A DNA stretch of 62,340 nt from Nemertoderma westbladi (taxonomy: Eukaryota > Animalia > Xenacoelomorpha), in assembly GCA_032718475.1 (NCBI GenBank), contig JAUCBJ010000103.1, positions 1 to 62,340 of the forward strand, in the 5' to 3' direction. This document shows, one piece after another, positions 20,466 through 56,323 of this stretch (positions are counted from its first letter, which is position 1; each line of letters opens with the position of its first letter). The notes below the pieces were generated by a model that did no database searches, was not told where the DNA came from, and saw only the letters and a program-made list of their open reading frames with translations. Both the position numbers and the translations under genes were made by a program.

Positions 20466-20689
20466 CTATAAACAAAATATGGGTAACTCGGCGATTAATA
20501 TATCGTCTCGGCCAATAACAATGACAAGTGAATAGTGAAGGGGACGGAGCAGGTTACAGTGACATATTATTCTACCCAAAACAATAAACTGGAGTCAATA
20601 ATATAATGGGTTAGTTTAATTTATGCTAGCAATCAGCTGTTTTATTAATATTGTTATACTGAGTTCTGTACCGTAAAAAAAATTATCGT

Positions 20690-35600: not shown

Positions 35601-36141
35601 GACCATATACTGCGTTGAACCCCACGCCCTTACCGACCATATACTACGTTGAACCCCACGCCCTTACCGACCATATACTGCGTTGAACCCCACGCCCTTA
35701 CCGACCATATACTACGTTGTACCCCACGCCCTTACCGACCATATACTGCGTTGAACCCCACGCCCTTACCGACCATATACTGCGTTGAACCCCACGCCCT
35801 TACCGACCATATACTACGTTGAACCCCACGCCCTTACCGACCATATACTGCGTTGAACCCCACGCCCTTACCGACAATATACTACGTTGTACCCCACGCC
35901 CTTACCGACCATATACTACGTTGAACCCCACGCCCTTACCGACCATATACTACATTGAACCCCACTCCCTTACCGACCATATACTGCGTTGAACCCCACG
36001 CCCTTACCGACCATATACTGCGTTGAACCCCACGCCCTTACCGACAATATACTACGTTGAACCCCACGCCCTTACCGACAATATACTGCGTTGAACCCCA
36101 CGCCCTTACCGACCATATACTGCGTTGAACCCCACGCCCTT
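23669..36141. repeat. 12.5-kb satellite array, 34-bp monomer (about 367 copies) with higher-order structure
   Basis: Monomer ACCATATACT(A/G)CGTTGAACCCCACGCCCTTACCG. Variant patterns recur at 850-bp (25-mer) and 3060-bp (90-mer) offsets. Confidence 0.98.
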
Positions 36142-37446: not shown

Positions 37447-37951
37447 AATGACTTCCCAGTTCTCAGCCTAGGCTGAGATCACTCCCCAGTTGTTTCAGCC
37501 TAGGTTGAGATCACTCCCCAGTTATTTCAGCCTAGGCTGAGATCACTCCCCAGTTATTTCAGCCTAGGCTGAGATCACTCCCCAGTTATTTCAGCCTAGG
37601 CTGAGATCACTCCCCAGTTATTTCAGCCTAGGCTGAGATCACTCCCCAGTTATTTCAGCCTAGGCTGAGATCACTCCCCAGTTATTTCAGCCTAGCTGCC
37701 TAGGCTGAGAATACTCACTTAGGCCTGTAGGCTGAGATGACTTCTCTATTGGAGTTATAATTCATATCCGTACCTGTGTTATTTTCGTATATTGCAAAAA
37801 TAAAACTGTAGCCTATGTTATTGAGATATCGTTTATTGTTTTGGTTAGAAAAGCCCGCCACTGTAACCTGCTCCTTTCCGTTAATTAAGAAATCTAGGGA
37901 GAAAACTGGGGAGTGTTATCAGCCTAGGCTGAGAAGACTGGGGGAGAGTCA
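37447..37951. mobile_element. MITE-like inverted-repeat element with a tandemly expanded 32-bp subterminal unit
   Basis: About 8 copies of CAGCCTAGGCTGAGATCACTCCCCAGTTATTT (palindromic core CAGCCTAGGCTG) on the left, and an inverted copy AACTGGGGAGTGTTATCAGCCTAGGCTGAGAAGACTGGGGGAGAGTCAT on the right. Confidence 0.65.
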
Positions 37952-38225: not shown

Positions 38226-38492
38226 ATGACCAATATTGCTGACACATTAGTGGCAGCGCGGGTCCCGAAAACAAGCGCAAACATTTGGCGTGTATTCGGA
38301 GATGTCTGTGAAGGCAGCGACATCAAAGTGAAACTAACAGCAGGATTTCCGGACGACCATGTAGATGACGATGTCAAGAAAGCCTTCATGGAGACCATCG
38401 ATGAGATGGCATCGCGACAATTACCCTGCGATGCAACAGGAAGCAGTACGAGTCTCAAGACTGCACTGTCCGAGTTCTACAGAGACGCCCTT
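38226..38492 (+). pseudogene. Kynurenine aminotransferase / glutamine transaminase K-like gene, 5' part (interrupted by LTR element)
   Basis: Reads NIW...KLTAGFPD...LKTALSEFY. Joins in frame to 52927 once the element and one TSD copy are removed (DAL|LREINPDSEVVLGTGA). Confidence 0.85.
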
Positions 38493-39030
38493 TGTTAGCT
38501 TATTCAATCCCGCCAACACCCCATAAAGTTATTAGCCGATAAGCAATATTGGGAGCCGCGAGATTGGGTAATTAACCAACTCGCGCCATCCCAATAAGAA
38601 TGGGAAGGAAGCACACAATAGAGGGTCAGGGGCCAAACCCCTAACCCAAGGAGAACAGGTGGAGTGAACGGGAATACTCCACGGGGCGCCAACAAGGGTA
38701 TTAACCAATCAGAGGGGGGAATGGCATCGATTGAGTAGCAGTAAGGCCACCGTGCAATATAACCAATAACCTATTAATCAGTGATTCAGTTATACCAGTG
38801 CAGCAGTGCTAGCGTAGGGTACAGCCAATTAGTTTAGTTAGGGGATCACGGGACTTTAGTTACCGTATCCCGCCTTGTACACATTCACAACATATCTATA
38901 TCTTATAACCTCCTATTATACACCGAACTTCAGAACTCAGTCACTTTATTTCATCCTTATACACGGCGGGGACGCGTGGACTAAATTACCACAACCGGAT
39001 AAATCGGGATCCCTCTTGGATCCCGTCACA
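38493..39030 (+). repeat. 5' LTR
   Basis: TGTTAGCTT...CCCGTCACA; no difference from the 3' LTR found by eye. Terminal hairpin CGGGATCC-CTCTT-GGATCCCG. Confidence 0.97.
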
Positions 39031-39109
39031 GTAACTAAAACCGAGCTGCCGCCCTAGTTAAACTCAAAGAACTCCACCCTAGCTAGTCGAACTCCACCGA
39101 GCAGACGAG

Positions 39110-41551
39110 ATGAGTGAATCGGGCGAGACACCGCGGACCCCGGACGAAGATCAAACGATCCGCGAGGCCGCGACCAGGCGGTATAGGCCCACCACGCCGG
39201 AGCCATCGATAACGGGCGAACCGGAAGCACAGGACGAGGAGGGCCTGGAGCCCGAAGTCGAGCCAAGAGAGGGAGAGAACGAGATGGAGGGAGATGGAGG
39301 CGAGTCGACACGAGAGGGAGAACGGCGCGCCGATGTCGCCGGCCAGCTACCGGCCGAGGGCGACGGGCGGCCCACCGAAACGGCGACGGTGGGGCCGACG
39401 GTGCGACGCCGGACGCGAAGAGACAGAGGAGAGATCGGTACCGATGTCGCCGGCCAGCTACAGGCCGAGGGCGACGGACGGCCCACCGGAACGGCGACGG
39501 TGGAGCCGCCGGTACGACGTCGAACCCGGAGGGACGGAGGAGAGGTCGGCGACGAGGACGTCGGGGTTTCTGAGCGACTTCGACGGGCCTACAACGCGAC
39601 CCGGAAGCTGATAAACGACGCCAAGAAGGAAGGGGCGAAGGTAGACGAGGTGAGACTGAGAAAGCGACTAGGTGAGTCGGATAAACACTTAAATTACCTA
39701 ATACGTTTTGAGCAGAGAAAACTGGCCGGCGAGAGAGCAAAAAGGATAGCCGGCGAACTGTTTGAACTATGGGAGTGTGGGAGTATGGGACCTAGCGTAG
39801 CGCCAGTGTACATAGGGCCATACTTGGTCGATGCCCGGGGAGTGAAACCAGTGGGTTGGAAGGGACCTGAGGAGGGCGAATCCGAGGCTAACACCGAGGA
39901 TTCGGCCTCGTCGGTCGGAGAAAGCTCCGAAAAGGGGGAGAAAGCTAGTAGGTCGGGAAGGCGGGGGAAGTCCGTCGTAACCGATAAGTCTGCTACATCC
40001 TCCGCGAAAGAAAGAGCGGTGAGAAAAATAGGAGCCACATACCGTCTCAGCATGGCAGAGCAAGGTCAGAGAGAAATGAAGGAACGGCTAGAGGAGGGAA
40101 GAGTGCGGTTAGAGAGGGAAACGGTATTGCTTAGAGAAACCGGAGAAAGGGCCGAAAGGGCTTTGAAAAGCCTAAGGGAGTATGATGAGATAGAGGAAAG
40201 GGAGTGTAGGGAGCGTGAAGCGAGAGAGGAAAAGGAACGCGAGGAGCGTGAAGCGAGAGAGGAAAAGGAACGCGAGGAGCGTGAGGCGAGAATGGAAAAG
40301 GAACGCAAGGAACGTGAGGCGAGGAAGGAAAAGGAACGCAAGGAGCGTGAGGCGAGGAAGGAAGAGGAACGTAAAGAGCGTGGGGCGAGACGAAGGGAGA
40401 GTATTAAGAGTGCCGCAGACTCGGCCATCAAGGACACCCAGGAGCGTGAGGGGATAGTGGCAAAGGGTGAAAGGGAGCATAGGGAATTAAAGGAACGGCA
40501 GAGTGAGTATGCGAAAGATATAATTAGAGGGACGCACGAGTTGGAATACGTGCAAGTGGGACCGTCGTCTGAAAGAGGGGCCGGCTCGAGTATTTTTGAG
40601 GAGCCGAGGGCCGTAGACGTATTTGTTAATACTCCACTGACAGGGACCGCACGACAGTCTCAAGACTGGTGCGACCGTACGAGCGGGGGGGGTAATAATA
40701 ATAATAATGGTACAGTAGACGTTGTTGATATTAATAGTACCGTATGGGATAACGCTAATCAAACCTTTATTACAGGAAATACTTTGCCTGGTGATAGTAA
40801 TTTAAATTCAAATCAGAACAATCCCAGTGTTAATGTAGAAAATAATCCTAATATTGATGTAGTTACGCAAAATAATTCAAATAATCAAAATAATAACTCG
40901 AATTCGGACCTACAAAATAACTTAAATAACGCAATTACACAGAATAATTCGAATAATTCAAATAATGATCTTAGCCCGAATTTACAAAATAATTCAGATA
41001 ACGTAGTCGCGCAGAATAATACAAATGATTTTGTTTCAAATGAGCAAATTAATTCCGTTTCCAATATGGGTGCTATTAGTGTAGACACGTCGGGCCTACG
41101 TAACCAGGGAGCAGAGGGCCTGGTAGGCCACGTAGTTAGTAGACAGGGAGCAGAGGGCCTGGTAGGCCGCGTAGTTGGTAGGCAGGGAGTAGAGGGCCTG
41201 GAAGGCCACGCAATAGCAGAGGGAGAGGCGGGGGTGAACAGACCCGACCGTGGTAGGGTTGATGTGTCGACTAGAGAGGTATATAATAGTGGGGAGAGGG
41301 GTAGCGAAGTTAGATGTAGCGAGTGGGGGGGGCTACGAGCACCCCACAACAGAAAGTTAGCGGCGAGAGGGGGGGGGCAGAGAGTGTCCCACAGCCGTCA
41401 GCGGACAATGCGAGGGCCGAACAAGGTAAACCGCAACAACCGGCGACGGAGAGTAATAGGGGGACAGCGAGTATCCCCGGCGACGTGCGATCGAGCAGAG
41501 AAGGACAGGTTGACGTCGCGGGAGGGCAGACGGAGCGTCGAGCCCGATTAG
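39110..41551 (+). CDS. Retrotransposon ORF upstream of gag: low-complexity, coiled-coil (E/R/K-rich) and Asn-rich protein
   Basis: 813-aa ORF with a 37-aa duplication, EREEREARE repeats, an Asn-rich island and RQGAEGLVG repeats. It probably continues into 41323-42390 via a shift at the G8 run (41325-41332). Confidence 0.7.
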   Translation: MSESGETPRTPDEDQTIREAATRRYRPTTPEPSITGEPEAQDEEGLEPEVEPREGENEMEGDGGESTREGERRADVAGQLPAEGDGRPTETATVGPTVRRRTRRDRGEIGTDVAGQLQAEGDGRPTGTATVEPPVRRRTRRDGGEVGDEDVGVSERLRRAYNATRKLINDAKKEGAKVDEVRLRKRLGESDKHLNYLIRFEQRKLAGERAKRIAGELFELWECGSMGPSVAPVYIGPYLVDARGVKPVGWKGPEEGESEANTEDSASSVGESSEKGEKASRSGRRGKSVVTDKSATSSAKERAVRKIGATYRLSMAEQGQREMKERLEEGRVRLERETVLLRETGERAERALKSLREYDEIEERECREREAREEKEREEREAREEKEREEREARMEKERKEREARKEKERKEREARKEEERKERGARRRESIKSAADSAIKDTQEREGIVAKGEREHRELKERQSEYAKDIIRGTHELEYVQVGPSSERGAGSSIFEEPRAVDVFVNTPLTGTARQSQDWCDRTSGGGNNNNNGTVDVVDINSTVWDNANQTFITGNTLPGDSNLNSNQNNPSVNVENNPNIDVVTQNNSNNQNNNSNSDLQNNLNNAITQNNSNNSNNDLSPNLQNNSDNVVAQNNTNDFVSNEQINSVSNMGAISVDTSGLRNQGAEGLVGHVVSRQGAEGLVGRVVGRQGVEGLEGHAIAEGEAGVNRPDRGRVDVSTREVYNSGERGSEVRCSEWGGLRAPHNRKLAARGGGQRVSHSRQRTMRGPNKVNRNNRRRRVIGGQRVSPATCDRAEKDRLTSREGRRSVEPD

Positions 41552-42390
41552 AGGAGGAAAGAAGAACAGTGGGGTTTAACCGGGAGGTCGACGAGAGATC
41601 TCGTGAGCGGGAATATTCCACTGATAGGAGAAGAGAGGAGGACAGTAGTAGAAGTATCGCCGTAAACGATAGAAGAGCGAGGACGGACAGCGAGCCGTCG
41701 GTAGTCGAGATGAGAACGGAGAGTCAATGGGGTCGGACTCCGGGAGATTGCCGTTGCCCCGGAGGGATACGATCCGGTGAGACGCATTACACGCCGAGAG
41801 AGGGGTACGCGATATACCGGTACGAAGATGAAAACAGTGGAGAGGGGGGTCGTAGAGAAACTTTCCGACGGAATATACCTACCGATCGAGAATACGGTAG
41901 CCGCGGGGAGGATTATTCGAGAAGAATAAACTTCGATCCCGAACAACACATGCAGACTGTAGGGCATACTGTAAGTCTTACTGCACATACCGTAGGCCAT
42001 ACTGAGAGAGGCAATGTAGGCGATAGGATAGCGCGGACAACGGGATTAAACCCGGAAGTCGCGGAATACATACCGGCGAGTAGGCCAGAAGCTGATAGGC
42101 CTATACCGGTACCAGCACAGCAGTATGACTACAGCATGCAGGGACATAACATATACCCAGGGGAGGGGGGAATTATTGCGGATAGGTGTATGGGCCCCAA
42201 CATATTAACATCAACCCCAGTACCAGACATACCGGTGGGGGGGGGACAGGGTGACATTCCCCCATCACGATATCAACAATATACCCCGACAGGAACAAGA
42301 ACGATGAGACCCCTAGATGAAAACAGGTCGTGTGATACAGACATATGGAGGGGGCCGCTACCCCCGATGACATATCCGAGTCAGAGATGA
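41323..42390 (+). CDS. Continuation of the pre-gag extension, in frame with gag-pol and separated from it by one TGA
   Basis: Same frame as 42469. After TGA 42388-42390 the frame stays open (SRNRTDEPHQTRETIQHPSNPLEAQA) into gag. Confidence 0.6.
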   Translation: MGGATSTPQQKVSGERGGAESVPQPSADNARAEQGKPQQPATESNRGTASIPGDVRSSREGQVDVAGGQTERRARLEEERRTVGFNREVDERSREREYSTDRRREEDSSRSIAVNDRRARTDSEPSVVEMRTESQWGRTPGDCRCPGGIRSGETHYTPREGYAIYRYEDENSGEGGRRETFRRNIPTDREYGSRGEDYSRRINFDPEQHMQTVGHTVSLTAHTVGHTERGNVGDRIARTTGLNPEVAEYIPASRPEADRPIPVPAQQYDYSMQGHNIYPGEGGIIADRCMGPNILTSTPVPDIPVGGGQGDIPPSRYQQYTPTGTRTMRPLDENRSCDTDIWRGPLPPMTYPSQR

Positions 42391-42468
42391 TCAAGAAATA
42401 GGACGGACGAACCGCACCAGACAAGGGAAACTATACAGCACCCGTCGAATCCATTAGAAGCGCAGGCA

Positions 42469-45400
42469 ATGGGGATGGCCACGTTGATCGATGCGTTGAA
42501 AACGAGGATCGAATTACCACCCGTGGAACCGTTCAAATTCGATGGGAGCAGGCCGGAAGAATACTTACAGTTTCGGCGAATGTATAGTAACGAAATACTA
42601 ACAAAAAACTTGACGCAGGCGGAGTGCCTAAAGTATTTACAAGTGTACACGGGAGGCCCAGCATACGATATCGTGAGGCAATACCAAGGGATAGAGGGCG
42701 GCTTCACGACAGCATGGCGGGCACTGGATAGGGAATACGGGCACCCGGCCAAGATCATCAGGCAGACGCTGAGAGGCATAACATCGGGTGGCCTACAGGA
42801 TAATCCCGTTAGCATTAAGACGTTTGCTAACAAAGTCGAGAAGGCGCTGATCGTGCTGAAGACGTTAGACGCGCCATACGAACTCAACGCGTCCAATAAC
42901 ATCACCACGATAGCGCAGGCACTACCGAGCTGGCTGCGCAACAAATGGAGGAAGATCGCTTTCTCCACCAGAGATAAGAAGGGTGCGGAACCAGGTTTAG
43001 AAGAAATGTCAAACTTCTTAAATTACGAGGCTGAACTAATAACGGACCCAGTTTATAGTGAAGATAGCCTGGGAAAGGGACCAAAGACAGATCATTACAG
43101 GCCCAAACCAGAGCACAATACATCGAACGCGTTACCGAGACTCAGGCAATCATTGCCATATGCAGCGACGCAGGGGACTGCAAGTCCACAGACAAGCGAA
43201 GATAAGACAACATCAAGGGACGGACAGGGGAACAATAACAACATGAATAAACATAACCCCAGTACGTCCAGTAGGTCAAACCCAGTCAATAAGAATAGTA
43301 GGGACTTTGGTACGAATATAACTGCAATACGCAATGCATTATATAAAGAGGGCTACGACCCAAAGAGCAAATGCCAGTTACACGCAAATGCGCTTCATAA
43401 AACCATGAACTGCAGGTACTGGCAGGCGCTACCGAGGCAAGACCAGATAGATTACGCGTCGAGCAATAAAATCTGCTCGCGATGTGTGAAGAGTGGACAC
43501 AAGGCCAGGGAATGCCAAGAGAAACCGGTCAAGTTTGGCCAAAGGAGAGGCCGGACGATGGCAACGAGCACAGTAGGGGCGAAGAAGAGAGGAACAGTGC
43601 TACTTGGAGTAGTACCAGTACGAGTGATCGGGGAAGGCAATCGATCAGTAACAACACTAATGCTGGTTGATAGTGGAGCTGCCTTCACATTAGTTGAGGA
43701 ATGGGTAGCCGAAGAAATAGGGTTGAGAACGAGGCCAAGCAGGATGGCGGTGACAACCATCTCTAGTAAAGACGAGATCCTAGAGATGAGGACAGGACGG
43801 TGCGCAATTGCAGCAGTGGCACCAGGATGCGATTATGGGGCAACCATCGACCCCATCCAAGTAATAGAGTCAATTAACATCAATGCCAGGCGGCCAACTA
43901 ACATCGAGGTCGAGCAATACAAATTCCTGGATAACATTGACTTCTCAATCCCAAACGTGGACGTTAGGAAGGTATCCATCATAGTAGGCATGGACTGCCC
44001 AACGGCCCACGAGAGAATGCAAACGGTCTTCGGCGAAGACAAGCAGAGCGACCCGGTGGCCATATTAACGCCATTCGGGTGGACGCTGAGTGGTCCAATT
44101 AAGAGCAAGATACCATTCAGGATGTCGGAGACATCAGGATGCATGTTCGCGGGAACAATGCAGGAAATGGGTGACGAGGGAGCAGAGGAGCAGCTTAAAA
44201 GACTGCTCAGACAGGACTTCGAGGGACTGAAAGAGACCGGGGTCGGGACCTCGGTAGAAGACAAGCAGGCTCTACAAAGTGTGGAGGAATCCATGACGTG
44301 TGATGAGGGGCGGTATACAATAGGAATGGTGTGGAAACTACCGAAGATACCGTTACCCGATAATAGAGGGATGGTACTCACGAGACTCCGCAAGCTGAAA
44401 CAAACACTACAACGGAGCCCCAAGAAGAACGAGTACATTCACAAAACCATTAAGAAGTACGTCGAGAAAGGATGGGCCGTGGAGTTACCGGTCGACGAAC
44501 CGAACACGGACAGGACATACTACCTGCCACTCCACGTAGCTTTAGACCCAAAGAAAGGTAAACTTAGGATGGTAGTCGATGCATCGGCAAAGACCGACGG
44601 AAAGTGCTTAAACGATTACCTACTAGAGGGCCCAAACATATATAATTCGGGCATAGAAGTACTACTTAGATTTAGGAATGGGAAACACGCCTTCACGTGT
44701 GACATAGAAGGCATGTTCAACCAAGTCCGAGTAACAGAAGAAGATAGTGACAGTCAACGCTTCTTATGGTATAACGGCGAAGAAGAACCGCCTATAATAC
44801 CGGCATATAAGATGGTAGTACAAAACATGGGGGCCAAGTCGTCCTCATTTACGACGACTATGGCAGTGAGAGACACGGTAAAGGGCAAGGAAGATAGATA
44901 TAGCAGTAGGGCCGTCGACATGATCAGACGCGGTTTCTACGTAGACGACGGCATGGAGTCTGGAAATACGGTTGAGGAGATACTGGAAACAGGGCGCGAG
45001 GTTCGCGACATCCTGAGAGGATCCGGCTTCAACCTGACCAAATTCCAATCCAGTTCAGAAGAATTTATCAGGGAAATAGAGGACAAGAAACCAGAATCGA
45101 CCATGGACAACCCTACAACAGCCAAAGGACAGGACATGGCGATTAAGAGAACGGAATCCCAGCAGAAGGCGTTGGGAATCGTGTGGGATAGAAAAACAGA
45201 CGAACTGAAGTATCAGCTGAGCCAGGAGGGCGCAGACACCCATACGAAGAGGGGTTACGTATCGTATATAGCAAGGATATACGATCCCTTAGGCCTAGCA
45301 TCCCCATTACTAGTCACGGGGAAACAGATACTCAAGAGAGTATATAAGTTGAAGGATGAGTGGGACGTAGAGGTACCAGAAGACATTAAGAAACAGTGGA

Positions 45401-47577
45401 GCAAATGGACAGGAGACTTGGAGAGGATGGGAACATACGACATGCCGCGAGTGTATTTCCCGGACGGGAACATGACGAATCTGGACCTACATATGTTCTC
45501 CGACGCGTCGTTAGAGGCATACGGAGCGGCACTCTATTTAGTACAACGAGAGGGGCCTCACAAGCCCAGACTAGCCTTTAGCAAAGCTAAGTCAACGCCG
45601 CCAGATTCAGCATCTGTTCCCAAGTTAGAATTGACAGCCGCGAGACTAGGAGTTAGAGCCACAGCCTACCTAGTGGATACAATTCCCAACATAGTGGAGA
45701 CACACTACTGGACGGACTCCATGGTAGTGCTTGGTTGGCTACACAACGAAAAGACGAGGTACCCGATATTCGTCGCGAATAGAGTGGACGAAATAAGGGC
45801 GAGCACAGAACTGGAAAGGTGGCACTACTGCCCAACAGACGAGAACCCAGCGGACTTGCTGTCGAGGGGCGTGGAACGCCACACTTTCTTAAAGAAAGAA
45901 GTATTGTGGCAACACGGGCCACAATTTCTGAGCGATAGGGAGGCCTGGCCGCCGATGAGGAAGGTGGACCCGGGCTCGGAAGTAGTATCAGAAGGAGAAG
46001 AGGGAGATTCAGAGGGAGAAGAGATATACTCCCAGATGGTGAGGGAGATCAGGGACGTGCAACCAGGAAGGGAACTGTGCGATAACCCGACGGATAAACT
46101 CCTCAGCTACAGTTCTAGTTGGTATAAGACCAAGAAACTAGTGGCGTACTGGAGAGCCTTTGGGAATTTCCTTGCGGGAGTCGGCAAGGACAAGAAGACC
46201 AGGACAACCATAGATCTGGAAGGAGCGGCCAAGGCAGTGATCCGCTATGAACAACGCAAGAACTACGGCGACGAGGTGGAACGTGTCGGTAACCAACAAC
46301 ATCTCCGACGGGATAGCGAGTTGATCACGCTGTCGCCACAACTCAACGAGGATGGGATCCTAGTAATGAATTCTAGGGTGGGATATAACAACAGTATAGT
46401 CGTGCCACCGAAACCAATCATCATTCCCACAGGATCGCCTATAGTCCACCAGATCATATGGGACTCCCATAAATCGATACTGCATGGGGGCACCAACCGA
46501 ACCCTCACGGAGATAAGAAGGACCTATTGGGTCAAACAATTAAGGAAGAAGGTGAAAGCGGTAGTGGGACAGTGCCAGACCTGCCGACGAGCGAAGAAGG
46601 AGCGAGCCGTACAGGAGATGGCGCCACTACCGGCGAGTAGGGTAAGACAGCACGACCCGCCATTTACGCATTGCGGTGTGGACATGTTCGGGCCGATAAA
46701 GATCAAGGTGATGCGACATACGGAGAAACGCTACGGTATTATCTTCGTATGCAACAATACGCGGGCGGTAGGGATAGAACTCGCCCAAGATGCAACCGCA
46801 TCAGCCTTCATTAACGCCTTAGAAAGGTTTAGGGACCGCAAAGGTGGGACGATCGCAGTGATATACAGCGACAACGGCACCAACTTTGTGGGCGCAGAGA
46901 GTGAGATGGCAGAGGCCTTAGACATCTTGGAGGGAGAAGAAGTCAGGGCGGCCATGAGAAGACGACAAGTGAAGTGGGAGAGACGGACGCCGTATGCACC
47001 ACATACACTAGGATGCGTCGAAAGACTGGTGGGCAGTTCAAAACGTCTAATGACGAAGCTGATGAACACCCACATGGTCACTGAAGACGTCTTACGGACA
47101 GTACTTGCAAAGTGCGAGGGGATCATTAATAGCAGACCGCTATACCCGGAGAATGATGACCCTGAGTCATTAGACGTGTTGACGCCTAGCCATTTCCTGA
47201 TGGAAAGGCCAGCGACCATAGATATGCGGGGTGTAGACCCAGATGATATACACTCCCGCCAAAGTTGGAAAGTAGCTAAAGCAATTAGCGCAGAGTATTG
47301 GAGGAGGTGGGTAGAAGAATACCTACCAACGCTCCATAAGCGAAGCAAGTGGAGGAAGCCAAACAGGGAGTTGAGAGAGGGAGATCTCGTAATCGTCACG
47401 GATGATACTATCATCAACAACCAATGGTGGTTGGCGAGAGTTGTAGGCACCTACTCAGACGAGGACGGAAGAGTCCGTTCGGTAGAAGTGCGGATAGGTG
47501 GAAAGATAGGTGCGAAAGACAGAAAAACCTACAAGAGAGCAGTAGGTAAATGCTGTCTTCTAGAAGGGGCACCTTAA
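42469..47577 (+). CDS. Bel/Pao Gag-Pol polyprotein (Gag, zinc knuckles, aspartic protease, RT, RNase H, integrase)
   Basis: Gag LPPVEPFKFDG; knuckle CSRCVKSGHKAREC; protease LVDSGA; RT YYLPLH/KLRMVVDAS/CDIEGMFNQV/YVDD; RNase H FSDAS/PKLEL/WTDS/NPADLLSRG; integrase HHCC, GVDMFGP, SDNGTNFVGA, VERLVGSSK and C-terminal WRRWVEEYLPTL. Confidence 0.97.
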   Translation: MGMATLIDALKTRIELPPVEPFKFDGSRPEEYLQFRRMYSNEILTKNLTQAECLKYLQVYTGGPAYDIVRQYQGIEGGFTTAWRALDREYGHPAKIIRQTLRGITSGGLQDNPVSIKTFANKVEKALIVLKTLDAPYELNASNNITTIAQALPSWLRNKWRKIAFSTRDKKGAEPGLEEMSNFLNYEAELITDPVYSEDSLGKGPKTDHYRPKPEHNTSNALPRLRQSLPYAATQGTASPQTSEDKTTSRDGQGNNNNMNKHNPSTSSRSNPVNKNSRDFGTNITAIRNALYKEGYDPKSKCQLHANALHKTMNCRYWQALPRQDQIDYASSNKICSRCVKSGHKARECQEKPVKFGQRRGRTMATSTVGAKKRGTVLLGVVPVRVIGEGNRSVTTLMLVDSGAAFTLVEEWVAEEIGLRTRPSRMAVTTISSKDEILEMRTGRCAIAAVAPGCDYGATIDPIQVIESININARRPTNIEVEQYKFLDNIDFSIPNVDVRKVSIIVGMDCPTAHERMQTVFGEDKQSDPVAILTPFGWTLSGPIKSKIPFRMSETSGCMFAGTMQEMGDEGAEEQLKRLLRQDFEGLKETGVGTSVEDKQALQSVEESMTCDEGRYTIGMVWKLPKIPLPDNRGMVLTRLRKLKQTLQRSPKKNEYIHKTIKKYVEKGWAVELPVDEPNTDRTYYLPLHVALDPKKGKLRMVVDASAKTDGKCLNDYLLEGPNIYNSGIEVLLRFRNGKHAFTCDIEGMFNQVRVTEEDSDSQRFLWYNGEEEPPIIPAYKMVVQNMGAKSSSFTTTMAVRDTVKGKEDRYSSRAVDMIRRGFYVDDGMESGNTVEEILETGREVRDILRGSGFNLTKFQSSSEEFIREIEDKKPESTMDNPTTAKGQDMAIKRTESQQKALGIVWDRKTDELKYQLSQEGADTHTKRGYVSYIARIYDPLGLASPLLVTGKQILKRVYKLKDEWDVEVPEDIKKQWSKWTGDLERMGTYDMPRVYFPDGNMTNLDLHMFSDASLEAYGAALYLVQREGPHKPRLAFSKAKSTPPDSASVPKLELTAARLGVRATAYLVDTIPNIVETHYWTDSMVVLGWLHNEKTRYPIFVANRVDEIRASTELERWHYCPTDENPADLLSRGVERHTFLKKEVLWQHGPQFLSDREAWPPMRKVDPGSEVVSEGEEGDSEGEEIYSQMVREIRDVQPGRELCDNPTDKLLSYSSSWYKTKKLVAYWRAFGNFLAGVGKDKKTRTTIDLEGAAKAVIRYEQRKNYGDEVERVGNQQHLRRDSELITLSPQLNEDGILVMNSRVGYNNSIVVPPKPIIIPTGSPIVHQIIWDSHKSILHGGTNRTLTEIRRTYWVKQLRKKVKAVVGQCQTCRRAKKERAVQEMAPLPASRVRQHDPPFTHCGVDMFGPIKIKVMRHTEKRYGIIFVCNNTRAVGIELAQDATASAFINALERFRDRKGGTIAVIYSDNGTNFVGAESEMAEALDILEGEEVRAAMRRRQVKWERRTPYAPHTLGCVERLVGSSKRLMTKLMNTHMVTEDVLRTVLAKCEGIINSRPLYPENDDPESLDVLTPSHFLMERPATIDMRGVDPDDIHSRQSWKVAKAISAEYWRRWVEEYLPTLHKRSKWRKPNRELREGDLVIVTDDTIINNQWWLARVVGTYSDEDGRVRSVEVRIGGKIGAKDRKTYKRAVGKCCLLEGAP

Positions 47578-47690
47578 ATTAGAGTTAGTGTGAAGTTTAG
47601 TCGTCCAAGTTTTGGACTGAGGGGGGTGGGATTGAGGGCGAGACGCCCTTCCCACACAAATAAAATAAAATAAAATAAAAATAAATAAAA

Positions 47691-48640
47691 GTTAGTTAGT
47701 TAGTAGGTACGTAGTACCTAGAGTTAGTTAGTTAGTGGGTACGTAGTACCTAGAGTTAGTTAGTTAGAAGGTACGTAGTACCTAGTTAGAGTTAGAGGGT
47801 ACGTAATGCCTAATTAGAGTTAGAGTTAGAGGGTAGGTAGTACCGATAGAGTTAGAGTTAGTAGGTACGTAGTACCTAGTTAGAGTTAGAGAGTTAGTAG
47901 GTACGTAGTACCTAGAGTTAGTTAGTTAGTAGGTACGTAGTACCGATAGTTAGAGTTAGTAGGTACGTAGTACCTAGTTAGAGTTAGAGTTAGAGGGTAC
48001 GTAATGCCTAGTTAGAGTTAGAGAGTAGGTAGTACCGATAGAGTTAGAGTTAGTAGGTACGTGGTACCTAGTCAGAGTTAGAGTTAGAGGGTGCGTAATG
48101 CCTAGTTAGAGTTAGAGAGTTAGTAGGTACGTAGTACCTAGAGTTAGTTAGTTAGTAGGTACGTAGTACCGATAGTTAGAGTTAGTAGGTACGTAGTACC
48201 TAGTTAGAGTTAGAGTTAGAGGGTACGTAATGCCTAGTTAGAGTTAGAGAGTAGGTAGTACCGATAGAGTTAGAGTTAGTAGGTACGTGGTACCTAGTCA
48301 GAGTTAGAGTTAGAGGGTACGTAGTACCATTAGTTAGAGTTAGAGTTAGAGGGTGCGTAATGCCTAGTTAGAGTTAGAGTTAGAGGGTAGGTAGTACCGA
48401 TAGAGTTAGAGTTAGTAGGTACGTAGTACCTAGTTAGAGTTAGAGTTAGAGGGTACGTAGTACCGGTAGTTAGAGTTAGTAGGTACGTAGTACCTAGTTA
48501 GAGTTAGAGTTAGAGGGTGCGTAATGCCTAGTTAGAGTTAGAGTTAGAGGGTAGGTAGTACCGATAGAGTTAGAGTTAGTAGGTACGTGGTACCTAGTAA
48601 GAGTTAGAGTTAGAGGGTACGTAGTACCATTAGTTAGAGA
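47691..48640. repeat. Internal tandem array within the LTR element (GTTAGA/GTTA repeats interleaved with GGTACGTAGTACC)
   Basis: Irregular units of about 30-45 bp made of (GTTAGA)n plus the quasi-palindrome TAGGTACGTAGTACCTA. Confidence 0.9.
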
Positions 48641-49129
48641 GAGAGAGTAAGAGGTAAAAGGGGTAAAATAAGATATAGATATTAGATAGCAGTAAGTAAA
48701 GTTAGTAGTGAGAGGGGGGCATATGAGTGCAGCTGGATAAATCGTGTGGCCACACGACGCATACTGCTGTACTGCATAGGCCCACTGAGTAGGCCAGAAT
48801 ATGGATCAGAGAATAGAATAAATCCATAGGCAGTAGTAAGTAGTAGGACAATAGAATCAAAGCAAAATAAATAAGTAAATAGAATAGGGCTAAAAATCGA
48901 AAAATAGTGGTAACACAAGGAAAGTCGTTCTAGAACATAATAAAAGTAACGGACGGAAATTGTAAATTAGGCTGATTTACTAGCTCCGAAATTAATTAGA
49001 TTAAATTAAGCTTGAAAGGCGCAGTTAAGTAGAAAAGTAGGCCATTATCGAACTGTAGGAAACATCTCAATACATCACTCATCTGTATTGCGCCTTGGTA
49101 AGGCACCACCCTACAGGTGAGCGAGTGTA

Positions 49130-50578
49130 GTGTTCGGAATGGCGAGTAAGCTGATCAGGAAGAGAAAGGCGGAGTCAGGAGGAAAAGAAATATTGGTGGA
49201 TTTCACCGAAAGACACCCGGAGGAGAAGACGAGAGGATACTACGAGAGGTTGGAAAGGGGTCACGCGGCACGAGCGCTGCAGGATCACTTCCGGGAGGCG
49301 CACGAACAGCGGTTGGTCGGAACCTACGGGACGCCGTCGCTGGATAATGCGATCTTCCAACACTTCCACTACGTGGTGAAAGGAGACGAGGCGAAGTTCG
49401 GAATTCCGAAGTATCCGAGGGAGTCGCCGAGGAAGGACTGGAAAAGATTCATAGAGTCCGTCAACAGAGGAGGATATATGATCCTAGATGACGAGGGAAC
49501 CGTGGAAGACGAAGCGGGTTCGAGACGAGGAACGGCAGGGTCGGCCAGGACCATACTCTTGCATTTGGCAGCGCCAAATGGGGACATCTTCCTATTCGAC
49601 CTAGGGACGTATGGGAAGAAGGACGGGCCGAAATTAGACCGACTGCCGAAAGCGGTACAGGTCTTAGTAAGAGAGAAGTCTACGACGAAAGTGGGATCGG
49701 CGATTCGCGAGGACGCGGAGAGGATCATCGGTCCGGACGCCACCAACCTCCTGGATATGCAGAAAGTCTTTATGGCTATGACGGCACCGGATGGATTGGG
49801 GGTGGTCGAGAACTCAGGCCAATGCGGGGCGGTGGCGATGGGCCAATTATTGGGGCTCGTATGCCACAAACCAATGGATTGGGGGAAGTTTAGGGAAGAA
49901 TACGGAGCAGAACTAGCGAACTCGCTGAAGTGGGGAGCGAGACCGGGAAAGCAGGAGGTATATCAGTTTCGCAGAGGAGCGATAAAGGTATATCAGAAGC
50001 GATATATCCTGCAGGAGGACTGGATAATGATAAGTTTGCTTAACTTATTCATGACCGTAGTTATCGAAAGGGAACCAGGGGCATTTCTGTTATCGGGATC
50101 ACCCCTAAGCTACAGGAGAGCCTTTAAGACGGCCTTTGACGGTCTGGTAGACCACCCGGGGCTGAAGGGCGAGTCGGTGTACTACAACAGCCGACATCTG
50201 GTAGATGGGGAGACGGATACACCGTATCAGAGATGGGAGCAGCTAGAGATGGATAGACGGGAAGCAAAGCGACTGGAAGAAGTCGCCAGACGGGAGAGGA
50301 TAGAAGCAGAGGAGAGGGAAGAGGAGGCCAGGACACAGAGTTATGGCTTCGAGGAACAGGCGGGTCTAGACGAGCTTCATTGGACTTCGTCAGGGAGTTC
50401 GGGGGAGTCTCTAGGACGAGAATTGGGATGGACGGTGGGATCGCCGAAACAGTCGACGTCGGGGGTTGCAGACGATGCCCATACCAGCGGGCGCCGAGGG
50501 CGACCAACCGCCAAGGAAGCTAAGGGAGCTAGAGGGATGGAGAGCCACGGGCGAAAGCCAAGGCGGGAAGGGACATAG
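49130..50578 (+). CDS. Retrotransposon accessory ORF with DnaQ-like DEDDy 3'-5' exonuclease signature (EXD2/WRN/Mut-7 type); first ATG 49139
   Basis: ExoI YMILDDEG (D120,E122), then TILLHLAAPNGDIFLFDL, ExoII LPKAVQVLVREKSTTKVGSAIRED (D195), NLLDM, and ExoIII-like YQKRYILQED (Y292, E296/D297). Basic N-terminus KLIRKRK. Recognised by eye. Confidence 0.7.
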   Translation: MFGMASKLIRKRKAESGGKEILVDFTERHPEEKTRGYYERLERGHAARALQDHFREAHEQRLVGTYGTPSLDNAIFQHFHYVVKGDEAKFGIPKYPRESPRKDWKRFIESVNRGGYMILDDEGTVEDEAGSRRGTAGSARTILLHLAAPNGDIFLFDLGTYGKKDGPKLDRLPKAVQVLVREKSTTKVGSAIREDAERIIGPDATNLLDMQKVFMAMTAPDGLGVVENSGQCGAVAMGQLLGLVCHKPMDWGKFREEYGAELANSLKWGARPGKQEVYQFRRGAIKVYQKRYILQEDWIMISLLNLFMTVVIEREPGAFLLSGSPLSYRRAFKTAFDGLVDHPGLKGESVYYNSRHLVDGETDTPYQRWEQLEMDRREAKRLEEVARRERIEAEEREEEARTQSYGFEEQAGLDELHWTSSGSSGESLGRELGWTVGSPKQSTSGVADDAHTSGRRGRPTAKEAKGARGMESHGRKPRREGT

Positions 50579-51674
50579 TGGATCCATCGGGATACCGGGA
50601 TTGGAGACGCTACCGGAAGAAGAGGACGACGACGACGAATTCGGAGAGATACCGCCCATCGAAAGGATAGGCCACTCGGACACGGACTGGGTTGGCGGAA
50701 GGGTGGTGACGGCCAGTGGGGCAAGGGCCTTCTGGAACAGATCCGGCAAGCGGACCTGGGTGCACGAGGGGCCGGCGATGGATTTCGCGGGGAGCACCAT
50801 CAGGTTGGGCGAGCAACCGGGGACGGCACCACGGATAGTATTCGGGGAGACGATGCCCGAGAGGGGCGGAGAGATAGACGTAAACAGGGAGAGCAACGTA
50901 GAGAAGTTCGCCTACCAGCGACTCCATAGACCGCGGAGATCGCTTGGGACGAAGGACGAGGTGGGACGCGAGACATTGGTACTCGGCTGCGACTACTGTG
51001 GGAGACAGACCCATCGGGAAAGCAGCTGCCTATACCGGTTCCAACGGGGAACCTTTTGTCTCTATTGTAGAGAACCAAGTCACAGGATGGGGGCGTGTCC
51101 ACGGTTGCATAACCGATGTCCAAAGTGCCACTTTCGGGGGCACTACGGACGCGAGTGCGACTGGATGAGCGACGAGGAGAAGTTCACGAGGTTCGAGGAG
51201 TGGGCCGACGTCGGGGCCATGACGCGCCAGCGCATGAAGGCCCAAGAGTTCAAGTGGGGTTTCTTCCTCATAAACCAGGAGACCCACATGGAAATCATAA
51301 AGCGAAGGTTACCGTTTACCTATCAAGAGGTAGCTACGGCGGCATCGTTCGCCGGAGTTATGAACACGCAACGGTACCTGGACAGGTGGACACCAGAGAA
51401 CCGGAGGGAGTTTAGGGATTTCTTGGCGGAACACGTACCAAAGGCAATGAAGATGATCCTATGGGACGCCACACGAGGGAAACAACCAGGCCATTCTGAG
51501 GGGCCACCGGCGAAGCGGTATCGGGCTTTAATAACACTAGCGCCCAAGGAGCCGACGACCGGGATCAGCAAGGAAGTGGCAGCAAAGGTCCGGAAACAGA
51601 AAGCGGATGATGCCAGAGGAGCGGTGATAACCAAGAAACGGGCCAGGGAGGAGGACGTGAGGAGGTACAGATAA
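50466..51674 (+). CDS. Retrotransposon accessory ORF with three tandem CCHC zinc knuckles (first ATG 50475; frame open from 50415)
   Basis: CDYCGRQTHRESSC, CLYCREPSHRMGAC and CPKCHFRGHYGREC are all exact CX2CX4HX4C. Acidic patch EEEDDDDE and NLS-like PPAKRYR/KKRAR. Confidence 0.8.
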   Translation: MQTMPIPAGAEGDQPPRKLRELEGWRATGESQGGKGHSGSIGIPGLETLPEEEDDDDEFGEIPPIERIGHSDTDWVGGRVVTASGARAFWNRSGKRTWVHEGPAMDFAGSTIRLGEQPGTAPRIVFGETMPERGGEIDVNRESNVEKFAYQRLHRPRRSLGTKDEVGRETLVLGCDYCGRQTHRESSCLYRFQRGTFCLYCREPSHRMGACPRLHNRCPKCHFRGHYGRECDWMSDEEKFTRFEEWADVGAMTRQRMKAQEFKWGFFLINQETHMEIIKRRLPFTYQEVATAASFAGVMNTQRYLDRWTPENRREFRDFLAEHVPKAMKMILWDATRGKQPGHSEGPPAKRYRALITLAPKEPTTGISKEVAAKVRKQKADDARGAVITKKRAREEDVRRYR

Positions 51675-52374
51675 GTTCCCGGAGGAGAGGGAATGGGACT
51701 GAGACTGGGACGTGGTGCGCCTGGAAGGCGCCGCATGTAACGTACGAACTATTAAGTATAAATTTAATTAATGCAAATAACTATATAAGTGCAATTCGTA
51801 TGTACGTACGTAGTGATTAGCAGTAAAATACATACGTTTGGAGTAAGTACTATAGTCATACAACCTTTCTCAATTAGCTACTGGGACTGGGGGACAATGA
51901 CTATGGCACTATGGACGAGACAACTGACAATTTCACACTTCTTGAGTGCGGCGGCACGAGAGGGGGGGGGAGGTTCGTCAGGAGAGATAAAAACAGTCAA
52001 AGTGGACTTGAGAATCGGAATAAGAGTGTGAAGTGCGGAGAGAGTGCGAACGCAATTCTAGTGTGGGGGGGGGAATGAGAGGCTGAGTAAGGGACGAGGA
52101 GGTCCGGGGGTATGAGAGAGAGTTAGGGTGAGAGTAGAGGGGAGGTAGGGCGAAAGTGTTGGGGAAACAAAAATCGCGTGAAGAGGTGAGCGCGATCGGC
52201 CCGACATGAAACGCCAGGCACACAGGGTAGCGATATCATACCCATAGGGGGCGGCCTGGAAAGCCGGCTCCGAGAGAAAAGAATTCCACCCCACACCCGA
52301 TGCTAGATCGGGATCCAGCGGGATTGTAGCGCACTTTTTTGGTTGATGCTATCTTCTTACCGGGAAGATAGCAT

Positions 52375-52383
52375 GGAGGGGAG
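52375..52383 (+). other. Polypurine tract (plus-strand primer)
   Basis: GGAGGGGAG immediately 5' of the 3' LTR TG. Confidence 0.8.
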
Positions 52384-52921
52384 TGTTAGCTTATTCAATC
52401 CCGCCAACACCCCATAAAGTTATTAGCCGATAAGCAATATTGGGAGCCGCGAGATTGGGTAATTAACCAACTCGCGCCATCCCAATAAGAATGGGAAGGA
52501 AGCACACAATAGAGGGTCAGGGGCCAAACCCCTAACCCAAGGAGAACAGGTGGAGTGAACGGGAATACTCCACGGGGCGCCAACAAGGGTATTAACCAAT
52601 CAGAGGGGGGAATGGCATCGATTGAGTAGCAGTAAGGCCACCGTGCAATATAACCAATAACCTATTAATCAGTGATTCAGTTATACCAGTGCAGCAGTGC
52701 TAGCGTAGGGTACAGCCAATTAGTTTAGTTAGGGGATCACGGGACTTTAGTTACCGTATCCCGCCTTGTACACATTCACAACATATCTATATCTTATAAC
52801 CTCCTATTATACACCGAACTTCAGAACTCAGTCACTTTATTTCATCCTTATACACGGCGGGGACGCGTGGACTAAATTACCACAACCGGATAAATCGGGA
52901 TCCCTCTTGGATCCCGTCACA
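52384..52921 (+). repeat. 3' LTR
   Basis: Direct repeat of 38493-39030, followed by TSD CCCTT. Confidence 0.97.
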
Positions 52922-52926
52922 CCCTT

Positions 52927-54171
52927 CTACGCGAGATAAACCCCGATTCCGAGGTGGTGTTAGGGACTGGAGCGAGTGACGTCATACACATGTGCTGCAT
53001 CGCACTCATCCAGGAAGGCGACAACATCGTGCTTATATCGCCCTATTTCGAACTCTACAACAGGATTATTATCAGTAAAGGTGGGAGGCCGTTGTATTCG
53101 CCGCTGCAGGACGCAAACGAGACCGCTACGGTACGACGGACCTCGGGAGATATGCGGGTAAATTGGTCCGATCTGGAGGAGAAGTTGTCCCTTCCGCAGA
53201 CCTCGCTGCTCATACTCAACACTCCGCACAACCCCACCGGGAAGGTGTTCACCCGCGAGGAGTTACGCCGACTAGCAGCGTTGTGCACGACCCACAACGT
53301 CGTCTGCATCTGCGACGAGGTCTACGAGTTTGACACGTTCGGGATGGCGGAGCACGTGAAGTTGGCGAGTTTCCCGGGGATGTGGGAGCGGTGTGTTACG
53401 GTGGGCAGCGCGGGGAAGGCATTCAACGCGACCGGACTCAAACTCGGATGGGGGCTGGGCGATGCGCGTTTATTAGCGAGGGTTTCCGCGGTGGTGCGAG
53501 CCATAGAGGGAGGTGGACCGTCCACGGTGACGCAGAGAGTGGTAGAGAAACTCGTTCGGAGGGAGCTGGAAGGGGCGGGATTGCTGACTAGGTTGAATCA
53601 AAGAAACTGTAGTAAATGCGACGCACTGTGCGCCATCCTGAGGGAGTCAGAGATACCGCACTACGAGCCACAGGGTGGCTGGTTCATCATCATCGATATA
53701 TCGCGAGTGGGAGATCCACCCGGGACTGGTGGGACACAGTCCGGTGATGGTGAGAGTGGGACACAGCCCGGGACTGGTGTGACACAGTCCGGCGGTGGTG
53801 GGACACAGTCCGGAACTGGTGTGACACAGTCCGGGGGTGGTGGGACACAGTCCGGAACTGGTGGGACACAGACCGGGGGTGGTGGGACACATTCCGGGAC
53901 TGGTGGGACACAGACTGGGAGTGGTGGGACACAGTCAGGGGATGGTGGGACAGAATTAGAGTCTCACCATGGAGACGTACACGTTGCTATGGCGATAGCT
54001 AAACATTTGGGACTGGTGCTGCTTCCCGGGTCGATGTTCTTCAACAGCCAATACTGCAGCTCCCGTCGCTGGTTGCGAACCACGTTTATTAAGAACTTAG
54101 AAACCCTTGAACGTTCCAGGGAACTGTTTCTAGCTCGAGGACGGTGGAACGTTCCAGGGAACTGTTCCTAG
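52927..54171 (+). pseudogene. Kynurenine aminotransferase-like (PLP-dependent class I/II) gene, 3' part
   Basis: NTPHNPTGKVF, DEVYE, PLP-lysine motif TVGSAGKAFNATGLKLGW, PQGGWF and WLRTTFIK. Intronless; about 503 aa when rejoined to 38226-38492. Confidence 0.88.
53720..53952 (+). repeat. In-frame 21-bp coding minisatellite (GTGGTQS/GGGGTQS) inside the aminotransferase
   Basis: About 11 units of GG(G/A)ACTGGTGGGACACAGTCC, giving a Gly/Thr/Gln/Ser insert of about 77 aa. Confidence 0.9.
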
Positions 54172-56323
54172 CTCTAGGACAGTGGAACGTTCCGGAGAAC
54201 TGTTCCAGCTCTAGGACAGTAGAACGTTCCAGGGAACTGTTTCTAGCTCTAGGACGGTGGAACCTGGAACGTTCCAGGGATCTGTTCGTAGCTCTAGGAC
54301 AATGGAACGATCCGGGGAACTGTTCCAGCTCTAGAACAGTGGAACGTTCCAGGGAACTGTTCCTAGCTCTAGGACAGAGGAACGTTCCAGGGAACTGTTC
54401 CTAGCTCTAGGACAGTGGAACGTTCCTGGGAACTGTTCCTAGCTGTAGGATAGTGGAACGTTCCAGGGAACTAACTGTTCCTAGCTCTAGGACAGTGGAA
54501 CGTTCCTGGGAACTGTTTCTAGCTCTAGGACGGTGGAACCTGGAACGTTCCAGGGATCTGTTCGTAGCTCTAGGACAATGGAACGATCCGGGGAACTGTT
54601 CCAGCTCTAGAACAGTGGAACGTTCCAGGGAACTGTTCCTAGCTCTAGGACAGTGGAACGTTCCTGGGAACTGTTCCTAGCTGTAGGACAGTGGAACGTT
54701 CCAGGGAACTAACTGTTCCTAGCTCTAGGCCAGTGGAAACGTTCCAGGGAATTGTTCCTAGCTCTAGGATAGTAGTGGAATGTCCCAGGGAACTGTTTCT
54801 AGCTCTAGGACAGAGGAACGTTGCAGGGAACTGTTCCTAGCTCTAGGACATTGGAACGTTCCAGGGGGCTCTAGGACATTGGAACGTTCCAGGGAACTGT
54901 TCCTAGCTCTAGGATAGTAGTGGAATGTCCCAGGGAACTGTTTCTAGCTCTAGGACAGTGGAACGTTCCAGGGAACTGTTCCTAGCTCTAGGGCAGTGGA
55001 ACGTTCCAGGGAACTGTTTCTAGCTCTAGGACAGAGGAACGTTGCAGGGAACTGTTCCTAGCTCTAGGACAGTGGAACGTTCCAGGGAACTGTTCCTAGC
55101 TCTAGGGCAGTGGAACGTTCCAGGGAACTGTTTCTAGCTCTAGGACAGAGGAACGTTGCAGGGAACTGTTCCTAGCTCTAGGACAGTGGAACGTTCCAGG
55201 GAACTGTTCCTAGCTCTAGGGCAGTGGAACGTTCCAGGGAACTGTTTCTAGCTCTAGGACAGAGGAACGTTGCAGGGAACTGTTCCTAGCTCTAGGACAT
55301 TGGAACGTTCCAGGGGGCTCTAGGACATTGGAACGTTCCAGGGAACTGTTCCTAGCCCTAGGACGGTGGAACGTTCCAGGGAACTGTTCCTAGCCCTAGG
55401 ACGGTGGAACGTTCCGGGGAACTGTTCCTAGCCCTAGGACGGTGGAACGTTCCAGGGAACTGTTCCTAGCTCTAGGACATTGGAACGTTCCAGGGAGCTC
55501 TAGGACATTGGAACGTTCCAGGGAACTGTTCCTAGCCCTAGGACGGTGGAACGTTCCAGGGAACTGTTCCTAGCTCTAGGGCAGTGGAACGTTCCGGAGA
55601 ACTGTTCCAGCTCTAGGACATTGGAACGTTCCAGGGAACTGTTCCTAGCCCTAGGACGGTGGAACGTTCCAGGGAACTGTTCCTAGCCCTAGGACGGTGG
55701 AACGTTCCAGGGAACTGTTCCTAGCCCTAGGACGGTGGAACGTTCCAGGGAACTGTTCCTAGCCCTAGGACGGTGGAACGTTCCAGGGAACTGTTCCTAG
55801 CCCTAGGACGGTGGAACGTTCCAGGGAACTGTTCCTAGCCCTAGGACGGTGGAACGTTCCAGGGAACTGTTCCTAGCTCTAGGACGGTGGAACGTTCCAG
55901 GGAACTGTTCCTAGCCCTAGGACGGTGGAACGTTCCAGGGAACTGTTCCTAGCTCTAGGACGGTGGAACGTTCCAGGGAACTGTTCCTAGCCCTAGGACG
56001 GTGGAACGTTCCAGGGAACTGTTCCTAGCTCTAGGACGGTGGAACGTTCCAGGGAACTGTTCCTAGCTCTAGGACATTGGAACGTTCCAGGGAACTGTTC
56101 CTAGCTCTAGGACGGTGGAACGTTCCAGGGAACTGTTCCTAGCTCTAGGACGGTGGAACGTTCCAGGGAACTGTTCCTAGCTCTAGGACGGTGGAACGTT
56201 CCAGGGAACTGTTCCTAGCTCTAGGACGGTGGAACGTTCCAGGGAACTGTTCCTAGCCCTAGGACGGTGGAACGTTCCAGGGAACTGTTCCTAGCTCTAG
56301 GAAAGTATAACGTTCCAGGGAAC
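54108..56323. repeat. 38-bp palindrome-rich minisatellite (about 58 copies) grown from the aminotransferase 3' coding end
   Basis: Unit GGAACGTTCCAGGGAACTGTTCCTAGCTCTAGGACAGT. The first unit encodes ERSRELFLA of the ORF and the array supplies the stop codon. Confidence 0.95.

Follow-up and report, generated by a model that had tools for sequence, protein, structure and literature searches.

A Bel/Pao retrotransposon of Nemertoderma westbladi with a conserved cargo of a probable DEDDy-type exonuclease domain and three zinc knuckles

The window analysed here, the whole 62,340-nucleotide stretch of contig JAUCBJ010000103.1 of Nemertoderma westbladi (assembly GCA_032718475.1), contains a long terminal repeat (LTR) retrotransposon of the Bel/Pao type that carries two long open frames, ORF3 and ORF4, between its integrase and its 3' LTR. 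An original prediction had taken these frames to encode a DEDDy 3'-5' exonuclease and a triple zinc-knuckle adaptor in the position of an envelope (env) gene. The element and those parts of it that bear on the cargo are as follows, in window positions.

38493-52921, plus strand: whole Bel/Pao LTR retrotransposon, 14,429 bp, with the 5-bp target duplication CCCTT at 38488-38492 and 52922-52926
38493-39030, plus strand: 5' LTR, 538 nt, TG...CA ends, same sequence as the 3' LTR
42391-47577, plus strand: gag-pol, with DUF1759, zinc knuckles, protease (DSG), reverse transcriptase (YVDD), RNase H region, integrase and DUF5641
49139-50578, plus strand: ORF3, 479 amino acids from its ATG, 485 from stop to stop
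49418-50074, plus strand: likely DEDDy 3'-5' exonuclease domain, residues 94-312, with D117 and E119 (ExoI), K184, D192 (ExoII), W265, Q286, Y289 and E293/D294 (ExoIII)
50234-50353, plus strand: charged helical linker, residues 366-405, 57% charged
50415-51674, plus strand: ORF4, 419 amino acids from stop to stop, first ATG at 50475, C-terminal part uncharacterised
50415-50578, plus strand: overlap of ORF3 and ORF4, 164 nt in different frames, within which conservation passes from the ORF3 frame to that of ORF4
50988-51158, plus strand: three tandem CX2CX4HX4C knuckles, starting at 50988, 51057 and 51117, with spacers of 9 and 6 residues
52375-52383, plus strand: polypurine tract, adjoining the 3' LTR
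52384-52921, plus strand: 3' LTR, matching the 5' LTR at 538 of 538 nt

The identical LTRs, the target duplication and the gag-pol domains (by Pfam and in order, DUF1759 at E 8e-11, Peptidase_A17 at E 8e-40 and DUF5641 at E 1e-23) assign the element to Bel/Pao, as had been proposed. Like the Belpaoviridae, for which LTRs of 0.2-1.2 kb and a total length of 4.2-10 kb are given (PMC8742986), it combines LTRs within that size range with a polypurine tract, the Bel/Pao Pfam domains and the gypsy-like order of protease, reverse transcriptase, RNase H and integrase (PR-RT-RH-IN). Unlike them, at 14.4 kb it lies outside the length range, and it has extra frames before gag and after pol and a cargo that is not env. 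Its Gag knuckles (43372-43515) comprise one canonical and one altered copy. The Gag of Bel/Pao elements usually has three zinc knuckles.

Both cargo frames are open and neither is fused to pol, with 710 bp separating the end of ORF4 from the polypurine tract and 3' LTR. An acceptor-like site lies ahead of ORF3 at 49116. Shuffling the bases of the stretch 2000 times yielded an open frame of at least 419 codons once, and none of 20,000 shuffles of ORF4, whose three knuckles all fit the pattern perfectly, contained more than one CX2CX4HX4C knuckle; across the six frames of the window there are four canonical knuckles in all, these three and one in Gag. Duplication of the Gag knuckle was considered as their source and rejected, identity to it being just 7 of 14 residues. 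The reading that neither frame is env also held: 19-residue hydropathy peaks at 1.44 in ORF3, where the ExoIII helix is predicted, and at 0.57 in ORF4, which indicates no clear membrane segment in either (no dedicated signal-peptide predictor was run), and the Pfam scan returned no env family match. Both frames carry the basic patches that had been pointed out. Downstream of the knuckles there is a globular-looking region (51159-51500) without a Pfam match.

Other copies of the element were studied through contigs of public runs (X1, X2, X3 and X6) aligned to it. Such contigs cover 30 of 30 bins of the whole element in X1 and X3, and over 49400-51300 they cover 30 of 30 bins in X1, X2 and X3 and 24 of 30 in X6, with 49,323 contigs aligning to 16 kb in X1. 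The summed contig depth, which is not a copy number, is of about the same order for ORF3 and ORF4 as for pol, and exceeds that of the flank by three orders; no contig joining pol to ORF3 in another copy was found among the public-run contigs, all of which are too short. Short, near-identical pieces in a further run, X5, which may be RNA, were left out. Differences between copies were taken as the best 40 of 305 for 49400-51300 and the best 40 of 2155 for the element, by support, and those in the cargo fall in ORF3 codons 241-334, 371, 430 and 435 and in ORF4. Among these listed differences, 20 of 24 in the exonuclease part are synonymous, where a fraction of 0.23-0.34 is expected (p ~1e-6; rough omega 0.06-0.10), as are 9 of 13 in ORF4 (p 0.006; rough omega 0.13-0.21). 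This bias indicates purifying selection on ORF3 over at least codons 241-334, and up to about codon 435, and on the ORF4 frame, while the last ~40 codons of ORF3 are not conserved in the ORF3 frame. None of the listed differences falls in ExoI or ExoII, which counts against the explanation proposed below.

Only four length differences are listed across 1.9 kb, of which one keeps the frame, two compensate each other and the fourth changes the frame. One contig from X6 (record 25) retains 87% identity across 411 nt, ungapped. A loose end at 50725 in an X6 contig resembles a cDNA template-switch adapter; as contigs do not reveal transcript starts, it was not used as evidence. Decayed copies exist as well, shown by 14 internal deletions that other copies carry at low depth. 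A one-off passenger capture followed by neutral decay would fit those deletions and the placing of the two parts in different frames here; the synonymous bias, the ungapped X6 contig and the lack of an intron or of host-like flanks largely refute it, and we regard it as very improbable. The expectation that the frames are kept in other copies is borne out by contig coverage and synonymous bias, and on this pattern the cargo is a kept component of the family.

The point at which the two frames overlap is informative in its own right. Of the two differences listed in its 5' part, both are synonymous when read in the ORF3 frame and neither is in that of ORF4. Of the five in its 3' part, none is synonymous in the ORF3 frame and four are in that of ORF4, and two of these 3'-part differences sit upstream of the first ATG of ORF4. 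The sole uncompensated frame-changing length difference among the four also lies inside the overlap, in all three samples compared. Because the conserved frame switches here and the frame-changing difference occurs in the same place, the exonuclease, charged linker and knuckles are likely to share a single reading frame in some members of the family, on what are small counts, in place of the nuclease and separate knuckle adaptor that had been envisaged. In X1-X3 the frame-changing variant makes up 20-36% of contig depth, and it is also present in the single X6 contig; since its share is just this, many copies resemble the two-frame copy here, which speaks against a single protein throughout. 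These two-frame copies may be broken, may start ORF4 from its own ATG or may shift frame in translation. The two-ORF layout is that of this copy and probably not of every family member.

The identity of ORF3 has to be approached from its motifs. All of the predicted exonuclease-type motifs were located, in the predicted order: YMILDDEG at residue 113, LLHLAAPNG at 140, FLFDL at 151, LP at 169, TKVGSAIREDA at 183, LLDMQ at 204 and YILQED at 289, with the residues first numbered D120 and E122 corresponding to D117 and E119 from the ATG. Searches of ORF3 and ORF4 against Pfam, NCBIfam, PHROGs and PDB sequences gave no family match for ORF3, and a Pfam scan of ORF3, whole and as the exonuclease domain alone, gave no PF01612 match, the check that had been suggested. 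Homologue searches of protein sets of 5.8 billion and 1.84 billion found none, the sole match among the 1.84 billion representatives being discarded as a spurious repeat protein. No homologue emerged from a near-length protein word search or from a longer-length search with residues 95-330, nor any match from metagenome and viral contigs; one match among phages and plasmids (E 3) was judged to be chance, and scans with pol for related elements returned one 1.5-kb fragment without a flank.

As the libraries were silent on ORF3, profiles were built from bacterial PF01612 domains, 53 of which were left from 60 bacterial loci after 7 were dropped by a motif filter. A WRN/EXD2-like profile, comprising 14 of the bacterial domains and 21 database proteins, ranks ORF3 first of 1075 sequences at 8.0 bits; the search for eukaryotic EXD2/WRN relatives for this profile returned bacterial-type proteins only. 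Unguided MAFFT alignment with 40 of the 53 bacterial domains places D117, E119, K184, D192, W265, Q286 and Y289 in invariant columns, seven columns matched in order across 180 residues. Conserved columns are matched at 8 of 16 positions, which 3 of 113 shuffles equalled. Scores over the whole domain, against 201 shuffle decoys, gave z of 4.1, 2.8, 3.7, 3.5, 2.5 and 1.9 in six settings, and 3.5-4.1 in three of the four settings of the two better profiles.

Several results weigh against this assignment, the blank library searches among them. The five PF01612 profiles rank ORF3 118, 2, 22, unranked and 2 among the 1075 sequences, and the sixth, WRN/EXD2-like profile was made after those rankings had been seen. 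The hhalign P values are 0.016 and 0.061, with 29 of 652 shuffles equally good, and 0, 6, 3 and 6 of 133 real unrelated proteins score as well as ORF3, one being tied at 20.2 in the case counted as 0. The ExoIII Asp column holds Glu293, with Asp294 next to it. An alignment-free AlphaFold model of ORF3 reached a mean predicted local distance difference test score (pLDDT) of 32, and the fold search made with it was discarded as the model is meaningless. With a borrowed alignment AlphaFold gave pLDDT 74, a predicted template modelling score of 0.76 and a core pLDDT of 85-94, a result that is circular and has no control; the matches of this model to WRN, Nibbler, RNase D and EXD1 (Z 11-13; for WRN, Z 12.3 and root-mean-square deviation 3.4 over 166 aligned residues) are circular in the same way.

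It could be argued that ORF3 is a conserved accessory protein of another fold that shows DEDDy motifs by chance, as the uniformly blank libraries, the up to 6 of 133 real decoys that score as well and the failed alignment-free fold would suggest. Seven invariant columns in order over 180 residues and the first rank among 1075 sequences argue against this, as does, circularly, the acceptance of ORF3 on a DEDDy fold by AlphaFold at that core pLDDT, and we consider such a protein unlikely. The DEDDy identity originally predicted has moderate support, with motifs in register, although no library search confirms it, and the ORF3 domain is likely to have the DEDDy fold.

The ExoI D-x-E (D117, E119) and the ExoII D192 are in register with the PF01612 domains, as is Y289; with Glu293 in the Asp column the Y-x3-D pattern of ExoIII is absent, in line with the alteration first noticed, and one profile set ExoIII on Y255 instead of Y289. 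A catalytically weak or dead RNA-binding scaffold, as in EXD1 or Egalitarian, might instead transport, package or shield the RNA of the element and supplement its knuckle-reduced Gag. It would explain the Glu, the non-small residues at the YAA positions of ORF3 and the insertions ahead of ExoIII, the Gag has one canonical knuckle, and inactive DEDD derivatives exist in the piRNA pathway according to the available text of PMC5408684. However, D117, E119, D192 and Y289 are all kept, together with Asp294, where greater loss would be expected in a dead enzyme. We find the scaffold rather unlikely, and lean slightly towards an exonuclease that is active despite the Glu at its last Asp position.

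The Juno and Vesta elements of bdelloids are Ty3/gypsy-type elements and not Bel/Pao. DEDDy ORF3s have been described in bdelloid LTR elements, namely Juno, Vesta and the Athena/Terminon elements (Rodriguez et al. 2017, PMC5408684, here and below in its available text), and as this cargo is already in print the idea is less new. The bdelloid ORF3s resemble the one described here in being non-env and DEDDy-type, in lying between integrase and 3' LTR, in lacking a membrane segment and in having one catalytic Asp replaced by Glu; exonuclease activity was not demonstrated for them. They differ in having been found by strong HHpred homology and in their change from DEDD to DEED, whereas the Glu here is at ExoIII; within the genome they do not depart clearly from neutrality, in contrast to the purifying selection indicated for the cargo here. 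CCHC is not mentioned in that text, and its available passages describe no ORF3 knuckle array, whereas three knuckles are present here. Bdelloid DEDDy ORF3s are also absent from basal branches, and such cargo is therefore dispensable for replication, which counts against an essential part in copying. A literature search, with Repbase, subscription journals and supplements outside it, turned up no report of a Bel/Pao element with DEDDy or exonuclease-knuckle cargo. The supposition that this cargo was unfamiliar therefore holds for Bel/Pao and fails for LTR elements at large: what is new is the host superfamily and the likely pairing of exonuclease and knuckles, the kind of cargo itself having been described.

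A cellular counterpart to that pairing is the RNase D of Trypanosoma brucei (TbRND; PDB 7C42), whose four CCHC fingers attach to single-stranded RNA and increase cleavage more than tenfold (PMC7797062, available text). As in TbRND, a RNase D-family-type exonuclease would here be followed by tandem CCHC fingers; unlike that cellular, mitochondrial enzyme, with four fingers close to the nuclease, the cargo belongs to a mobile element and has three knuckles, set ~300 residues downstream and, in this copy, in a second frame. The ORF4 knuckles match TbRND (7c42) weakly, at E 0.22 and over the knuckles only, and the likeness is best taken as a weak analogy rather than shown homology. In Dada DNA transposons a DEDDy domain has been proposed to process 3' ends in transposition (PMC3706591, available text); unlike the cargo of this LTR element, with its ExoIII Glu, that domain is part of the DDE transposase of a DNA transposon and keeps its four acidic residues.

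The primer site offers a further clue to function, and involves the following features.

39031-39039, plus strand: primer-binding-site position, complementary to the element's own LTR, a candidate self-priming site
38855-38863, plus strand: LTR segment complementary to the primer site, 9 nt, perfect pairing
38864-38879 with 38960-38974, plus strand: predicted 15-bp stem, continuing the 9-nt LTR segment

Unlike the 18-nt primer site of Belpaoviridae, which pairs with a tRNA end (PMC8742986), the site here lacks a TGG start, there being no TGG in the first 30 nt past the 5' LTR, and has instead a 9-bp match to the element's own LTR. A match of this kind was found in 154 of 100,000 LTR shuffles, or in 76 of 20,000 with four offsets allowed. 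There is no tRNA gene or convincing Rfam match within the element; a tRNA fragment may nonetheless serve as primer at this site. The predicted fold adds an 8-bp hairpin at the LTR end beside the 15-bp stem. Its stability (z -2.1, 7 of 200 shuffles) applies to a start that we chose, there is no excess stability from 38780, and the pair probability of the primer site varies from 0.24 to 0.95 with the assumed start. TATAA is paired with TCAGTY, the initiator consensus, at 38758/38786 and 38904/38937, and these promoter-like pairs would place the start 67 nt before or ~75 nt after the LTR segment at 38855-38863. A primer formed at a splice junction inside the LTR was rejected, since its longest complement, 10 nt, offers no gain over the unspliced 9 once the large number of donor-acceptor pairs tried is considered.

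In Tf1 the primer consists of the transcript's initial 11 bases, cut by RNase H alone (PMC7175516, available text), which argues against any need for an exonuclease. As in Tf1/sushi self-priming elements, the primer site here is flush with the LTR and pairs with an LTR segment near predicted stems; unlike Tf1, it pairs over 9 bp and not 11, the segment lies at neither predicted start, and the element belongs to another superfamily. We found no report of a self-priming Bel/Pao, with Repbase, subscription journals and supplements again outside the search. The own-LTR pairing is a candidate lead towards one, and stays a lead because it comes from one copy, without covariation.

These observations enabled us to propose, tentatively and by analogy, that the DEDDy exonuclease and its three knuckles trim the element's own RNA at its 3' ends in the course of copying. 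In this model, following TbRND, the knuckles would hold RNA in single-stranded form and pass its 3' end to the two-metal site, where the DEDDy domain would shorten it. As a substrate, the RNA end that becomes the primer is the most specific candidate, since the pairing LTR segment is at neither predicted start and a single-strand exonuclease would halt at the edge of a duplex. In a stronger form, which we regard as a long shot, the element would be a tRNA-independent Bel/Pao in which the knuckle-guided exonuclease trims RNA to the 9-bp primer-site duplex, giving a 3'-OH; if true, reverse transcription would be primed without a tRNA and without a 5'-end primer of the Tf1 type. For the suggestion that the cargo is a proofreader of the reverse transcriptase there is no evidence either way.

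A close rival, possible though somewhat doubtful, is that the same protein acts as a counter-defence nuclease on host silencing RNAs, lowering the silencing of the family; its targets would be PIWI-interacting or small interfering RNA (piRNA/siRNA) precursors before 2'-O-methylation, or the slicer fragments that seed amplification. The accessory position of the cargo, the many copies suggested by the contig count in X1, the basic patches and the extreme divergence from cellular DEDDy proteins, with no homologue found, are all consistent with this, as are fold neighbours that include Nibbler and EXD1, a circular point. Arenavirus ExoN reportedly provides a precedent as an immune suppressor. Purifying selection is strong, however, and gives no sign of an arms race. 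Bdelloid elements point both ways, as Juno1/2, which have a DEDDy ORF3, may have a higher copy number, whereas Vesta2/5 carry the DEDDy ORF at low copy (PMC5408684, available text). Trimming of the element's own RNA is ranked first because the element-internal clues, its self-complementary primer site and its one-canonical-knuckle Gag, point there.

The remaining parts of the element lie on either side of gag-pol.

39083-41551 and 41320-42390, plus strand: two upstream open frames of 822 and 356 amino acids, with low complexity and charged repeats, Asn-rich
47690-48639, plus strand: tandem repeat of ~950 bp between pol and ORF3, with a variable 34-nt unit in ~29 copies

A Pfam scan of the two upstream frames gave no match. 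In the first of them 5 of 13 listed differences are synonymous, and selection on it therefore appears to be weak or absent. The 34-nt array has many length variants among copies.

The element splits an intronless class I/II aminotransferase frame (ATG at 38226; 38226-38492 and 52922-54171), the downstream part of which matches PF00155. One X6 contig reads straight across the empty insertion site. With identical LTRs and a target duplication, this makes the present copy young and not fixed. The downstream part of the aminotransferase frame has an in-frame 21/42-nt repeat at 53720-53952 and then enters a 38-nt satellite (54109-56323). Elsewhere in the window lie a 34-nt satellite of ~367 copies (23533-36141), a palindromic 32-nt satellite (37463-37695), an intronless prohibitin-like (Band_7) frame (852-1787) and a non-LTR-type reverse transcriptase frame (5968-7686). 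A short dispersed repeat at 37829-37893, inverted at 20533-20589, is of very high copy, with numerous loose ends across all DNA runs.

Why DEDD nucleases are captured repeatedly by unrelated retroelements has stood as a question since 2017, when the bdelloid cases showed neither clear selection nor a function (PMC5408684, available text). The present family adds a second superfamily, clear signs of purifying selection and a knuckle array joined to the probable nuclease, for which a solved cellular analogue exists, and it allows the two main ideas, processing of the element's own RNA ends and small-RNA counter-defence, to be tested on a single protein. Should the cargo indeed be linked to the self-complementary primer site, this would represent a new way of starting reverse transcription.

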